NCBI RefSeq assembly: GCF_003334785.1
Contig: NZ_QOWV01000002.1
Source: Escherichia coli
GTDB taxonomy: Bacteria; Pseudomonadota; Gammaproteobacteria; Enterobacterales; Enterobacteriaceae
Direction: 5' to 3' (one strand)
Length of the DNA stretch: 64,000 bases
Shown here: piece after piece, positions 51,513 through 54,824 of the stretch
Layout of the letters: the number at the start of each line of letters is the position of its first letter
Numbering within the stretch: position 1 is the stretch's first letter
Program-made: the position numbers and the translations under genes
Notes under the pieces: model-generated
Told to the model about the DNA's origin: nothing
The model's input: the letters and a program-made list of their open reading frames with translations, nothing else
Databases searched by the model: none

Positions 51513-52645
51513 CAGTGAAATACTACGCCATTCTGACTAATCAGGGCGCAGCACGGCTGGCTAACGCGACGATGCTCGGCAGTAAGCTGAATCTGACGCA
51601 AATGGCCGTTGGTGATGCGAATGGTGTCTTGCCGACACCAGACCCGGCACAGACAAAACTGATTAATCAGAAACGCATTGCACCGCTGAATCTTCTGAGT
51701 GTTGACCCGAACAACCAGAGCCAGATTATTGCGGAGCAAATCATCCCTGAGAACGAGGGCGGATTCTGGATCCGTGAGATTGGGCTTTATGATGATGAAG
51801 GCGTACTCATTGCGGTGGCGAACTGCCCGGAAACGTACAAACCGCAGTTGCAGGAAGGCAGTGGTCGTACCCAGACTATCCGCATGATTCTGGTTGTCAC
51901 GAATACCGAAGCCATCACGCTGAAAATCGACCCGTCGGTGGTACTGGCGACCCGTAAATACGTGGATGATGAAGTCCTGGAATTAAGGCTGTATGTGGAT
52001 GAACAGATGAGAAACCACATTGCCGCACAGGATCCTCATACCCAGTATGCACAGAAACATAATCCGACATTTACCGGAGAACCAAAAGCGCCGACGCCTG
52101 CCGCAGGAAATAACACCACGCGGATTGCGACCACTGCGTTTGTTCAGGACGCTATTACCGCTCTGATTAACGGTGCGCCAGCCACGCTGGACACACTGAA
52201 AGAAATTGCCGCAGCCATTAACAATGATCCGAAATTTAGCACCACCATTAACAATGCGCTGTCAGATAAGCAGCCACTGGATGAGACGCTGACTCATTTG
52301 AGTGGAAAGGATGTTGCCGGTCTTCTCGCATACCTTGGTTTAAGAGCAAGCGGGCAGTACACCGATAATTTGTTATTTACAGGTCCTGATGGTCTTAAGA
52401 TTCAGGTGTTTCGCCGGACGCTCGCAAATTTGACTACTGTCGGTGTAGTAAATTCTGTGCCAGTGACTTTCCCTGTCCCGTTCCCTGTTAATTGCTGGGG
52501 CGTTTTTTCTACCAAATTAACATGGGTTCAGATAACTAACTCATGCGAGTGGGTAAGCAATACAGGATTTACCGCTCAGGTCATGATGAATATTTCTGTA
52601 AATACAAACACCTCAGACGCCATGTTTTTAGCTATAGGATATTAA
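51509..52645 (+). CDS. H: tail fibre protein (gpH-like): conserved N-terminal part plus a short variable C-terminal tip
   Basis: 378 aa; N-terminus MTVKYYAILTNQGAARLANATMLGSKLNLTQMAVGDANG is tail-fibre-like; hix-like site at codons ~272-280; C-terminal part AT-richer. Confidence 0.8.
   Translation: MTVKYYAILTNQGAARLANATMLGSKLNLTQMAVGDANGVLPTPDPAQTKLINQKRIAPLNLLSVDPNNQSQIIAEQIIPENEGGFWIREIGLYDDEGVLIAVANCPETYKPQLQEGSGRTQTIRMILVVTNTEAITLKIDPSVVLATRKYVDDEVLELRLYVDEQMRNHIAAQDPHTQYAQKHNPTFTGEPKAPTPAAGNNTTRIATTAFVQDAITALINGAPATLDTLKEIAAAINNDPKFSTTINNALSDKQPLDETLTHLSGKDVAGLLAYLGLRASGQYTDNLLFTGPDGLKIQVFRRTLANLTTVGVVNSVPVTFPVPFPVNCWGVFSTKLTWVQITNSCEWVSNTGFTAQVMMNISVNTNTSDAMFLAIGY
52323..52348. promoter_or_regulatory. 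hix/gix-like 26-bp recombination site inside H (boundary between constant and variable parts)
   Basis: TTCTCGCATACCTTGGTTTAAGAGCA; half-sites fit TTnTCnnAAACC with central TT. Confidence 0.65.
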
Positions 52646-52646
52646 T

Positions 52647-53087
52647 ATGAATCGTTTTGTGTTCAGTCCATCTGAGTCCCGTTTTTATGCCATCGAGTGG
52701 CAGGCTGATTATGTTGATAATAATTGTTGGCCACATGATGCCATTAACGTTAGTGACAGCATTTATTATGAGTTTTCCGGCACTCCCCCTACAGGTAAGC
52801 AACTTATAACTTTAAATAACATGCCAGCATGGGGTGATATTCCTCCACCTACACGAGAAGAATTAATTGTCGCTGCTGATGTGGAGAAGCAAAAAAGAAT
52901 AGATTTAGCCAATGATTACATGAACGGTAAGCAATGGCCTGGTAAAGCAGCTATTGGTCGTCTGAAAGGTGAGGAACTGGCACAATATAATTTGTGGCTG
53001 GATTATCTGGACGCACTGGAGCTGGTTGATACCTCCAGTGCTCCAGATATTGAATGGCCTACGCCTCCGGCAGTTCAGGCCAGATGA
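52647..53087 (+). CDS. tail fibre assembly chaperone (Tfa)
   Basis: 146 aa, C-terminus ...LWLDYLDALELVDTSSAPDIEWPTPP typical of Tfa/gpG/Mu U family. Confidence 0.75.
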   Translation: MNRFVFSPSESRFYAIEWQADYVDNNCWPHDAINVSDSIYYEFSGTPPTGKQLITLNNMPAWGDIPPPTREELIVAADVEKQKRIDLANDYMNGKQWPGKAAIGRLKGEELAQYNLWLDYLDALELVDTSSAPDIEWPTPPAVQAR

Positions 53088-53661
53088 CATCCGGCGCGGT
53101 GCTGGTATCTGTTGCCGTCACCGCGTCAGTGTAATCCAGCACTGCGTTAAGACGGGTGGTTTCTGCCTGCGTCAACTTCCGTCCGGCCTGTAATTTCAGC
53201 TGAATCAGACTGATGGATGCCATTGCAGCATCAATCAGTGACTGGCGCTGTGCTTCTGCTGCGTCTACTGCGGCGCTATGCTGTGCCTCAGTATCGGTCA
53301 CCCATTTCTCACCATCCCATTTATCGTATGGAGATAAAGGGGCGATAGTGGTTGTATTTTCAGGGTAATCACCCGGAGTTGTGATTTCTTTGGCGTCTCC
53401 CGTTTCGGTGTTATAGACGATTTCACCGCGATGGTCTGGCACATATTCCCATGAGTTAAAATCTACAGATCGGCAGATTGCATAACCAGCTTTGTATGTG
53501 CCAGGGGCATCTAAACAGGAATATGCAGGGATACCGACACCAACGGCAAGATATTCAGTTGATGTGGAAATATATTCCCGTGTTTCGCCATCATAGTTAT
53601 AGACGGTAATATTCCCCGCCTTTGTAGCAATAAACTCGCTATTTAATACAGCGTTATCCAT
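53059..53661 (-). CDS. alternative tail fibre assembly chaperone (Tfa') in the inverted orientation
   Basis: 200 aa, C-terminus ...LNAVLDYTDAVTATDTSTAPDVIWPELPEA; 3' ends of the two tfa genes overlap. Confidence 0.75.
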   Translation of the reverse strand: MDNAVLNSEFIATKAGNITVYNYDGETREYISTSTEYLAVGVGIPAYSCLDAPGTYKAGYAICRSVDFNSWEYVPDHRGEIVYNTETGDAKEITTPGDYPENTTTIAPLSPYDKWDGEKWVTDTEAQHSAAVDAAEAQRQSLIDAAMASISLIQLKLQAGRKLTQAETTRLNAVLDYTDAVTATDTSTAPDVIWPELPEA

Positions 53662-54203
53662 TATGCAGCCCTCACGATATAGTTAAATGCAATATTCCGT
53701 GGACGGGTTTCATTTATCCCATATGCTGTTGTTCTCTGATTCCCGATAAAATATCCATTTGGATTAGAAGATACAGAATAATCATCAAAATCAAGTGGGC
53801 TATCAGCACCCGGCGTCAGGCTTGCAATATATCCTCTTCCCATAACTTCTGATGCTGGTATTTCTTTTGTACGATAATCACTAACTCTGAAGAGCTGCCC
53901 TTGGTGGGTGTGTGATTCCACTCCTCCATTCTGAAGACTTAGCAAGGCACGTACAGCATCAATACCACGCCCGTCATCCCAGCCCCTAATAAACTCACCG
54001 CGTAAATCAGGCAATTTATTTGTCGGATAAGCCTTTGCCAGTTCCGGGTATTCTTCAGCAGAAAAAGCGGCACCGTTGCATTTCAGCCAGCCTGTTGGCG
54101 GAGTGGCTGAAGGCCACGGAACAGGCACCCCAACCGGTAATGCAGAGCCTTCTCCCAAACCAACGTTTATGAAAATGCAGAGATAACGGGCAACTGGCAT
54201 CAT
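53661..54203 (-). CDS. alternative tail fibre C-terminal cassette (Sv'-like), expressed only after inversion
   Basis: 180-aa ORF with phage tail-collar-like motif (PTGWLKCNGAAFSAEEYPELAKAY...LPDLRGEFIRGWDDGRG); the 26-bp site lies in its first ~18 codons. Confidence 0.7.
   Translation of the reverse strand: MMPVARYLCIFINVGLGEGSALPVGVPVPWPSATPPTGWLKCNGAAFSAEEYPELAKAYPTNKLPDLRGEFIRGWDDGRGIDAVRALLSLQNGGVESHTHQGQLFRVSDYRTKEIPASEVMGRGYIASLTPGADSPLDFDDYSVSSNPNGYFIGNQRTTAYGINETRPRNIAFNYIVRAA
54150..54175. promoter_or_regulatory. hix/gix-like 26-bp recombination site next to the invertase gene
   Basis: TTCTCCCAAACCAACGTTTATGAAAA; partner of the 52323-52348 site; core dinucleotide AA versus TT suggests inverted orientation. 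Confidence 0.65.
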
Positions 54204-54224
54204 CTCCGGTTTTTATTCAGGGGG

Positions 54225-54824
54225 ATGCTCATGCTTATTGGCTATGTCCGCGTGTCAACAAATGACCAGAATACGGAATTGCAGCGTAACGCGCTGGAGT
54301 GCGCAGGATGCGAGCTGATTTTTGAGGATAAAATCAGCGGCACGAAGTCCGACAGACCGGGACTGAAAAAACTGCTCAGAACATTATCAGCAGGTGACAC
54401 TCTGGTAGTCTGGAAGCTGGACAGGCTGGGGCGTAGTATGCGGCATCTGGTCATTCTGGTTGAGGAACTGCGCGAACGCGGCGTTAATTTTCGCAGTCTG
54501 ACGGATGCTATTGATACCAGCACGCCGATGGGGCGTTTTTTCTTTCATGTGATGGGTGCCCTGGCTGAAATGGAGCGAGAACTCATTGTCGAGCGGACAC
54601 GCGCCGGACTGGAAGCGGCCAGAGCCAAAGGTCGTATTGGTGGCAGACGTCCGAAACTCACCGCGAGTGAGTGGGAGCAGGTTGGACGGTTGCTGGCTGC
54701 GGGGGAATCTCGTCAACGCGTGGCGCTGATTTTTGATATTGGCCTGTCCACGCTCTATAAAAAATTCCCCTCATCAGCGACAAAGAATAAATTGTGTCAT
54801 CCCTTAACCAACCGGGACAAATAG
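54225..54824 (+). CDS. serine-recombinase DNA invertase (Hin/Gin/Cin/Pin family)
   Basis: MLIGYVRVSTNDQNTELQRNALECAGCELIFEDKISGTKSDRPGLKKLL...; catalytic Ser in YVRVST, C-terminal HTH. Confidence 0.9.
   Translation: MLMLIGYVRVSTNDQNTELQRNALECAGCELIFEDKISGTKSDRPGLKKLLRTLSAGDTLVVWKLDRLGRSMRHLVILVEELRERGVNFRSLTDAIDTSTPMGRFFFHVMGALAEMERELIVERTRAGLEAARAKGRIGGRRPKLTASEWEQVGRLLAAGESRQRVALIFDIGLSTLYKKFPSSATKNKLCHPLTNRDK

Follow-up and report, generated by a model that had tools for sequence, protein, structure and literature searches.

The systems closest to the locus described here are found in the e14 prophage of Escherichia coli K-12, in phages Mu and P1, and in P2-like prophages. The P-segment/PinE inversion system of e14 in K-12 reportedly goes back to work by Plasterk and van de Putte in 1985. 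It is arranged as a fiber gene and tfa, followed on the opposite strand by tfa' and an alternative tip, and then by the invertase gene, a layout shared by the locus under study. Phage Mu has the same gene order (S constant part, gixL, Sv-U, U'-S'v, gixR, gin), with gin positioned outside the segment, its 5' end nearest the site at a distance of 67 bp and the enhancer inside that end. Din-family systems employ a small serine recombinase, with the Ser9/10 nucleophile and conserved Asp and Arg residues in an N-terminal catalytic domain and with an HTH at the C-terminus, and two inverted 26-bp sites that are imperfect palindromes with matching central dinucleotides. The enhancer of this family consists of two Fis sites 48 bp apart, placed in cis and usually near the beginning of the invertase coding sequence. 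P1 departs from the present locus in that it is a plasmid prophage and in that cin occupies the opposite side of the segment, with its 3' end overlapping cixL.

At the Z/fun hotspot locus of P2, a DNA invertase is often present (10.1101/2024.10.15.618418). In P2-like prophages of enteropathogenic E. coli (EPEC) E2348/69, an invertase and inverted repeats switch the C-terminus of the fiber, and whole-genome sequencing and PCR revealed both fiber variants together within clonal cultures (Goldberg et al. 2014, PMC4272514). Inversion of the e14 P segment was observed by the same two methods (PMC4272514). The layout is common in P2-like prophages, where phase variation has already been shown experimentally (PMC4272514).

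A Probable Inversion Switch in Place of G and Z/fun

The DNA analyzed here, referred to as the window, is a 64-kb stretch of an E. coli genome that contains a P2 prophage. Its backbone is 94.9–99.4% identical to P2 across 31235–61615, excepting one replaced block, one insertion sequence (IS), and one deletion. Collinearity covers the att core, int, C, A, old/tin, and the capsid and tail operons. Each att core agrees exactly with that of P2, and the Old and Tin models match in the prophage. Orf30 (48147–48932) is a homologue of P2 orf30, for which PADLOC returned nothing. P2 homology is gone between 51337 and 54804, where the 3' end of I, together with H, G, and Z/fun, is replaced by a module resembling that of Escherichia phage pro483 (Peduovirus pro483, NC_028943); the prophage is therefore correctly called a mosaic, as the initial annotation of this DNA had it. 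The genes of pro483 follow the same order (I, H, tfa, tfa', tail-collar tip, DNA invertase, sheath), and the two sequences are 97.7% identical across I and the constant H portion as far as crossover site 1, and 95.5% identical from crossover site 2 across the invertase gene and on into FI. The distal tips differ, with no nucleotide similarity at 52354–52821 or 53715–53964.

Based on the evidence presented below, the module is very probably a site-specific tail fiber inversion switch of the Din family (Hin/Gin/Cin/Pin) that took the place of G and Z/fun in this P2 prophage. Its features are as follows.

51509–52645, plus strand: tail fiber gene H in its current orientation, 378 aa (ORF, PHROG, Pfam)
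51509–52334, plus strand: constant part of H
52335–52645, plus strand: tip A of H (Gp53-like_C)
52323–52348, no strand: crossover site 1, within H; TTCTCGCATACC TT GGTTTAAGAGCA, translated LLAYLGLRA
52335–54163, no strand: invertible segment, 1829 bp with the central dinucleotides included
52647–53087, plus strand: tfa, tip A chaperone, 146 aa; PHROG 188 (tail fiber assembly), E = 1e-53
53059–53661, minus strand: tfa', tip B chaperone, TfaE-like, 200 aa; PHROG 105, E = 6e-98
53661–54163, minus strand: tip B cassette (tail-collar type), silent in the window orientation; PHROG 523 and 3100
54150–54175, no strand: crossover site 2; TTCTCCCAAACC AA CGTTTATGAAAA
54231–54824, plus strand: Din-family serine DNA invertase, Gin/Pin-like, 197 aa; alternative ATG at 54225
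54249–54320, no strand: putative recombinational enhancer, nt 19–90 of the invertase gene

The initial annotation had given the switch an extent of 52323–54824. The right end of this span is the stop codon of the invertase; the switch proper occupies 52323–54175, to which the invertase and its putative internal enhancer are added.

Crossover Sites

Both 26-bp sites lie at exactly the coordinates first assigned to them. When the whole window was searched with TTCTCNNAAACCNNGGTTTNNGAGAA, allowing up to three mismatches and using shuffled controls, exactly two matches were returned, sites 1 and 2, where the shuffles predict 0.01. Each site has two mismatches to the consensus. A third crossover site was sought across the window and none was found, the next-best 26-mer having six mismatches. 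A multi-site inversion system, in which three or more crossover sites allow more than two arrangements, such as Min of p15B or the three-repeat EPEC locus, was ruled out because only two sites have two or fewer mismatches. The EPEC systems, likened here by description, include one locus with three repeats and four variants, compared to two sites in the window.

The central dinucleotides, TT at 52335–52336 in site 1 and AA at 54162–54163 in site 2, indicate that the two sites are inverted relative to one another. Alignment of the sites to the hix/gix/cix family had been proposed as a check, and in a side-by-side comparison both align with gix, cix, and pix. Site 2 agrees with the invertase-proximal (pinE-proximal) site of K-12 e14 at 26 of 26 positions, and 11 of the 12 letters in the right half of site 1 are shared with the corresponding half of P1 cixL (GGTTTAAGAGAA). 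Counting against full conformity, site 1 departs from the AAACC of the family and reads ATACC. As in Mu, an LGL motif is encoded in the core of the site, whereas the central dinucleotide is TC/GA in Mu and TT/AA here. Site 1 falls at the exact joint between the constant and variable parts of H; site 2 adjoins the invertase.

Two Fiber Tips, Each with a Chaperone

Between the sites, the initial annotation had recognized the H tip and tfa on the plus strand and tfa' with a further fiber cassette on the minus strand, assignments that gained support from PHROG and Pfam. The H product matches PHROG tail fiber families (E down to 1e-159) and the Pfam families Phage_tail_fib, at its N-terminus, and Gp53-like_C; Caudo_TAP is listed in Pfam for a gene identical to tfa. 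None of the four fiber and chaperone proteins was assigned to a family by NCBIfam. The 3' end of tfa' shares 29 bp with tfa, and tfa' is 90% identical at the nucleotide level to tfaE of K-12 e14.

The formal open reading frame of the tip B cassette extends over site 2 to 54203, and tip B reaches H only upon inversion. Inverting the segment in silico produced an in-frame fusion, H', of 442 aa, which ends in NIAFNYIVRAA and carries a Pfam Collar domain. Both orientations are in frame, and in each the fiber is followed by its own chaperone gene (tfa or tfa'). According to Pfam, the folds of the two tips are unrelated, Gp53-like_C in tip A versus Collar in tip B.

Invertase and Putative Enhancer

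A serine invertase gene had been placed directly outside the segment, and an intact one is present there. Its product matches Gin (PDB 3uj3) with E = 1e-93 over residues 1–182, at about 80% identity, and PHROG 125 (DNA invertase) with E = 9e-101. Pfam Resolvase and HTH_7 are listed for an identical gene; NCBIfam gave only sub-threshold matches. The gene starts 68 bp from the crossover site, compared to 67 bp in both Mu and e14. The enzyme keeps the catalytic and regulatory residues S9, D64, R65, R68, H106, and M114, of which H106 and M114 correspond to the wild-type, Fis-dependent form. A shufflon of the Rci type, as in plasmid R64, was ruled out, since the recombinase is a serine invertase with Ser9 and the Gin match given above. 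Rci shufflon inversion is catalyzed by a tyrosine recombinase.

A search for a Fis-bound enhancer in the 5' part of the invertase gene, also suggested initially, led to a putative segment that aligns without gaps to the annotated enhancer of P1 cin, at the same position within the gene. Identities are 56 of 72 to cin, 61 of 72 to pinE, and 54 of 72 to gin. Within this segment, two Fis-core candidates (54253–54267 and 54301–54315, centers 48 bp apart) fit a degenerate Fis consensus; as 14 chance pairs with equal spacing occur in the window, the assignment relies on homology to the enhancer annotated in P1. From this homology, we infer that Fis may bind at the two candidate positions.

A simple model would suggest that invertase dimers bind both 26-bp sites and that the invertase, the sites, and the Fis-bound enhancer in the invertase's own 5' coding region assemble into an invertasome on supercoiled DNA. 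The central 2 bp of both sites would be cut, half of the complex would rotate by 180 degrees, and religation would leave the 1829-bp segment flipped. In the window orientation, the constant part of H would be joined to tip A, a gp53-like knob, followed by tfa; after inversion, it would be joined in frame to tip B, of the tail-collar type, followed by tfa'. With two fiber fusions, a phage population would hold particles with two receptor specificities.

Comparison with e14, Mu, and P1

Judged from its sequence, the switch has its nearest relative in the e14 Pin system rather than in Mu or P1. The initial annotation had likened it to the Mu G segment and the P1 C segment; the layout of tips and chaperones does hold for these, but e14 is closer. 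The Mu G segment measures about 3 kb, compared to 1.8 kb here, its tips differ, and gin is only about 72% identical in nucleotide sequence to the window's invertase gene. The e14-type prophages of other strains contain the same tip A/tfa/tfa'/tip B cassette at 94–96% identity. The correspondence has limits: e14 is a separate, non-P2 cryptic prophage, whereas the window element is a P2 myovirus, and the window's invertase departs from PinE after about residue 125 and has a C-terminal tail of 13–15 aa.

In the e14-type prophages, similarity to the window starts inside the left half of site 1, with none directly upstream. At the corresponding joint, the H gene of canonical P2 retains a single half-site as a relic. 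These two observations suggest a further role, which we consider rather doubtful, in which the crossover sites would also serve, beyond intramolecular switching, as joints for the exchange of cassettes of fiber tips, chaperones, and invertase between unrelated prophages. If this were true, a dead prophage could still supply its invertase in trans, and other loci in the cell could be reshuffled or made to vary in phase.

Both Orientations Occur in Public Sequences

It had been proposed initially that finding only one orientation, together with an inactive invertase, would speak against a switch; both orientations of the exact sequence exist in public assemblies. GCA_012767835.1 and GCA_051122575.1 both code for the exact 442-aa H' protein; in each, the P2 surroundings are the same and the segment is inverted. 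The post-inversion gene order, tip B and then tfa', is present at two of the loci examined (L014 and L015). Over 9930 bp, locus L015 and the window flipped in silico disagree at two positions, neither of them within the segment; the invertase in that assembly is 100% identical to the window's, and the sites are identical as well. The exact 378-aa H protein occurs on 15 public contigs. Four loci (L017, L018, L020, and L021) match the window at 100% identity and share its orientation, and draft assemblies such as GCA_003334785.1 are likewise 100% identical. For the exact allele, 15 contigs are oriented as in the window and two are flipped, and both flipped examples retain an intact lysis cassette. 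Identical copies of the sequence have demonstrably flipped elsewhere.

Two isogenic pairs extend this observation. Over 8200 bp, the sole difference between TBE6 and TST3 is a 3014-bp interior that is exactly reverse-complemented, with the same ISKpn26 inside; ZH48 and ZH49 are identical save for the exact reverse-complementation of 1815 bp. Site 2 is a breakpoint in both pairs, and the TBE6/TST3 breakpoint carries a site identical to site 1. In three independent comparisons (TBE6/TST3, ZH48/ZH49, and L015), the inversion breakpoints fall within the crossover sites.

Junction searches found tip B beside the invertase in 946 genomes and tip A beside it in 12. These counts do not amount to a clean ratio of orientations, since many different cassettes share the proximal part of tip B. 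Among RefSeq complete genomes, none exceeded 97.7% identity to 51900–54900 across the full length. E. coli genomes have a median of two, and a maximum of 14, places that match such cassettes.

The Switch in a Defective Prophage

The prophage copy in the window is defective. Its cox gene contains an IS911-like element, and a deletion has removed L, X, Y, K, lysA, lysB, lysC, and R, as well as the first part of S. Neither this defect nor the commonness and experimental phase variation of the layout in P2-like prophages had been mentioned in the initial annotation. Because the prophage is defective, selection on the switch is relaxed, and the switch is probably without phenotype here unless its genes are rescued by recombination or a helper; a role in the host range of this strain is unlikely.

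Such decay bears on the most serious alternative to a working switch, namely that the module is intact in sequence and yet fixed in orientation, with no flipping in this strain, for instance with an invertase that is unexpressed or weakened by lineage-specific residues. A scan with sigma-70 and terminator consensus sequences recognized no invertase promoter or operon terminator above shuffle background, 6 of the 197 residues of the enzyme are different in the TBE6/CUPS04 lineage, and both checked contigs with the window's M–S deletion (L018 and L020) are in the window orientation. However, one assembly whose invertase is 100% identical and whose sites are the same has the segment flipped, and the six differences spare every one of the conserved catalytic and regulatory residues, which makes a fixed orientation improbable. 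As far as its sequence elements indicate, the switch is probably still able to flip in this strain's copy.

It is less probable still that flipping is due to e14 PinE or a Din-family invertase from another prophage, acting in trans on a locus whose resident gene is dispensable or inactive. Din invertases can complement one another, and Fin, the Fels-2 prophage invertase, reportedly acts on Salmonella hix, according to work ascribed to Kutsukake in 2006; the identity of site 2 to the e14 site and the several cassettes per E. coli genome would also fit such an origin. Against this, the resident invertase is intact and rightly placed with respect to site and enhancer, and nothing points to its inactivity. 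The resident enzyme would be the likelier agent of inversion. That the sites are chance palindromes amid fiber and chaperone genes left antiparallel by ordinary rearrangement has only their short length in its favor and is already refuted by the excess of sites over expectation, by their positions at the H joint and beside the invertase, and by the breakpoints inside them.

The switch is real and of a known, ordinary type, and it matters little beyond correct annotation. It should be annotated as a single invertible unit comprising a fiber with two C-termini, two chaperones, two sites, and an invertase with a putative internal enhancer. For host-range engineering of P2 or tailocins, the two natural pairs of tip and chaperone represent ready-made modules. 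The orientation of the segment in an assembly is a snapshot of the population rather than a strain marker. At present, PGAP names the silent tip "tail fiber protein" or "gp53-like domain-containing protein" and treats it as a free-standing gene.

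Gene Content and Crossover Sites of the Inversion Module

The region 52323-54824, described in the initial annotation as an invertible tail-fibre switch, has the gene content listed there: a tail-fibre gene (H), tfa, an opposite-strand fibre C-terminal cassette with its own tfa', and an invertase, as judged from open reading frames, PHROGs, and Pfam (PHROGs E-values of 1e-53 to 1e-159 for the module genes). The current C-terminus of H is referred to here as tip A, the silent minus-strand cassette as tip B, and the fusion formed upon inversion as H'. The formal reading frame of tip B extends through the second crossover site to 54203.

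Genes and crossover sites of the module
51509-52645, + strand: H, tail fibre (PHROGs tail fibre; Pfam Phage_tail_fib N-terminal and Gp53-like_C)
52323-52348: site 1, TTCTCGCATACC-TT-GGTTTAAGAGCA
52647-53087, + strand: tfa (PHROGs tail-fibre assembly)
53059-53661, - strand: tfa' (PHROGs tail-fibre assembly)
53661-54163, - strand: fibre C-terminal cassette, tip B (PHROGs tail-collar fibre)
54150-54175: site 2, TTCTCCCAAACC-AA-CGTTTATGAAAA
54231-54824, + strand: serine recombinase, 197 aa (PHROGs DNA invertase)

Din inversion systems are textbook material. A search of the whole 64-kb window with the Din-family consensus TTCTCNNAAACCNNGGTTTNNGAGAA, allowing up to 3 mismatches, returned sites 1 and 2 alone, each with 2 mismatches, against a chance expectation of 0.01 in dinucleotide-preserving shuffles; the runner-up 26-mer has 6. 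Both 26-bp sites thus lie exactly where they had been placed, and their match to the consensus bears out their proposed hix-like nature. Read on the same strand, their central dinucleotides are complementary (TT versus AA), which indicates that the sites are inverted relative to each other.

The genes tfa and tfa' are convergent, with 3' ends that overlap by 29 bp (53059-53087), leaving no space for a terminator between them. The overlap is also found in the Peduovirus pro483 and in e14, the cryptic non-P2 prophage of K-12, but is absent in Mu.

Both Orientations Occur in Public Assemblies

Inversion was modeled in silico by strand exchange at the central dinucleotides, with 52335-54163 reverse-complemented. 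In the flipped window, the constant part of H joins the minus-strand cassette in frame, yielding a 442-aa H' that ends in NIAFNYIVRAA, in which a Pfam Collar domain replaces the gp53-like knob; tfa' lies directly 3' of the fusion gene. The site core is translated in either state (...LLAYLGL-RA... or ...LLAYLGL-GE...), and Mu gixL and P1 cixL encode the same LGL joint.

The exact predicted H' is encoded in two NCBI assemblies, in the same P2 context and with the gene order H', tfa', tfa and tip A on the minus strand, and invertase. Compared with the in-silico-inverted window over 9930 positions, one of them, GCA_051122575.1 (locus L015), shows 2 differences, neither of them within the segment; apart from the flip, it has the crossover sites, segment, and invertase of the window at 100% identity. 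The exact 378-aa H is present on 15 contigs, 4 of which carry loci matching the unflipped window at 100%. In two contigs with the exact H (L016 and L019), the capsid genes (O, N, M, L) are inverted and precede the lysis genes, and S to J are apparently missing, so that R is directly followed by I; these contigs represent another rearranged variant of the same prophage.

Strain pairs provide a second line of evidence. The E. coli TBE6 and TST3 prophage is 97.7% identical to that of the window and has identical 26-mers. The 8200-bp loci of the two strains are identical save for a 3014-bp interior that is exactly reverse-complemented between the strains, with breakpoints within the two crossover sites. 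Because this interior carries the same ISKpn26 copy in tip B of both strains, the inversion postdates the landing of the element. ISKpn26 (IS5-like) disrupts tip B and is carried along by the flipping segment; TST3 has the disrupted tip fused to H, and the fibre gene is therefore broken in that orientation only. ZH48 and ZH49 carry another P2-like prophage with near-identical sites, and the sole difference between them is an exact inversion of 1815 bp. Of the RefSeq complete E. coli genomes with the full cassette, 7 have the window orientation and 5 are flipped. The initial annotation named, as part of what would refute it, that only one orientation is ever observed; public assemblies answer this point with flipped as well as unflipped copies.

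Invertase and Putative Enhancer

The 197-aa recombinase aligns with Mu Gin (PDB 3uj3 and 4m6f) over residues 1-182 (E = 1e-93). Ser9, Asp64, Arg65, and Arg68 are present, as are, in the Gin alignment, His106 and Met114, the wild-type residues that, when mutated, free Gin or Hin from Fis dependence. The distance from crossover site to invertase start is 68 bp, compared to 67 in Mu and e14. A promoter consensus scan recognised no promoter for the invertase.

The P1 GenBank record annotates the Cin enhancer at nucleotides 19-90 of cin. The corresponding positions of the invertase gene, 54249-54320, align with it without gaps (identities of 56/72 to cin, 61/72 to pinE, and 54/72 to gin), so that the suggested search of the 5' part of the gene yielded a putative enhancer homologous to the annotated element. 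Two Fis-core candidates lie within it.

Fis-core candidates
54253-54267: candidate 1, 15 bp, TGTCAACAAATGACC
54301-54315: candidate 2, 15 bp, GCGCAGGATGCGAGC

Their centres are 48 bp apart, and both fit the degenerate consensus in all five genes compared. Because the Fis consensus is loose enough to give 14 chance pairs in the window, the case for the enhancer is one of homology and position rather than motif.

A P2 Backbone with a Pro483-Type Fibre Module

By nucleotide identity, the prophage is P2 itself: identity is 94.9-99.4%, old and tin included, and both att cores (31235-31261 and 61589-61615) are identical to the P2 core.

Canonical P2 anti-phage genes
38816-39577, - strand: tin, intact (PADLOC Tin, E = 9e-98)
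39752-41512, - strand: old, intact (PADLOC Old, E = 1e-214)

P2 homology breaks off within the 3' part of gene I, at position 51337, and restarts at 54804, within the region annotated in P2 as the pF activator-binding site. The loss of homology between these points indicates that the 3' end of I, H, G, and Z/fun were replaced by a pro483-type module. This supports the mosaic origin claimed in the initial annotation, on firmer ground than was available to it. Canonical P2 has neither a second site nor an invertase; its H (locus L009) retains a lone relic site, TTATCGAATATCTCGGTTTACAGGAA, at the constant/variable joint (...IEYLGLQET..., P2 13857-13882), the right half of which is that of Mu gixL.

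At 54772-54824, the final ~15 codons of the invertase fall in the homologue of the P2 pF late promoter and activator-binding site (P2 17555-17583), and the C-terminal tail (…SSATKNKLCHPLTNRDK) is read from it. The elements TTGTG...CCAACCGGGACA are kept, indicating that the 3' end of the invertase overlaps the sheath-operon promoter.

Pro483 has a layout identical to that of the window, including an annotated "DNA invertase", with 97.7% identity up to site 1 and 95.5% from site 2 on; the distal portions of both tips differ. By sequence comparison, the closest relative is e14, not Mu or P1. In K-12, the e14 site proximal to pinE is identical to site 2 (26/26), and tfaE has 90% nucleotide identity with tfa'; e14-type prophages of other strains carry the same tip A/tfa/tfa'/tip B cassette at 94-96% identity. 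PinE diverges from the window invertase beyond about residue 125. In the e14-type prophage of E. coli H1827/12 (L022), compared with window 52270-52360, nucleotide similarity sets in within the left half of site 1, and the adjoining upstream sequence shows none. Site 1 is thus the edge of a module common to unrelated prophages, a boundary that is compatible with, but no evidence for, cassette exchange at crossover sites.

This coincidence of module boundary and crossover site is the only mildly interesting point. The locus is an uncharacterised new example of the inversion switches of P2-like prophages. In EPEC E2348/69, two loci of P2-like prophages phase-vary experimentally, one with three repeats (PMC4272514), and a DNA invertase is frequent at this P2 hotspot (2024 preprint, 10.1101/2024.10.15.618418).

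The Prophage Carrying the Module Is Defective

The module in the window is structurally complete and, judged from its parts, very probably still able to invert, but the initial annotation, in calling it a host-range switch, missed two defects of the prophage. At 32959-34208, cox is interrupted by an IS3-family insertion of 1250 bp that has IS911-like ends (TGAAGTGG...) and left a 3-bp target duplication (ACA); this interruption is expected to prevent excision and the lytic switch. In addition, about 3 kb (P2 5950-8942, NC_001895) are deleted at 47652-47657, taking out L, X, Y (holin), K (endolysin), lysA, lysB, lysC, R, and the first codons of S. The prophage consequently neither lyses the cell nor finishes heads and tails, and as it makes no particles, the module cannot alter their host range.

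The same deletion occurs in L018, L020, and IAL7250. The lysis cassette is intact in the sequence-identical relatives L014, L015, L017, and L021, and both examples of the exact allele in flipped orientation (2/2) sit in intact prophages.

Host Flank

The CyaR/RyeE sRNA gene (61592-61677, - strand; Rfam, 100.7 bits) overlaps the attR core (61589-61615), which places the insertion at the 3' end of cyaR, between yegR/yegS and trhP. The cyaR locus of K-12 and of IAL7250 holds P2 remnants (ogrK). Rfam matches in the host flank to a TPP riboswitch (14896-14992, + strand) and naRNA4 (22847-22917, + strand) are ordinary E. coli chromosomal features.
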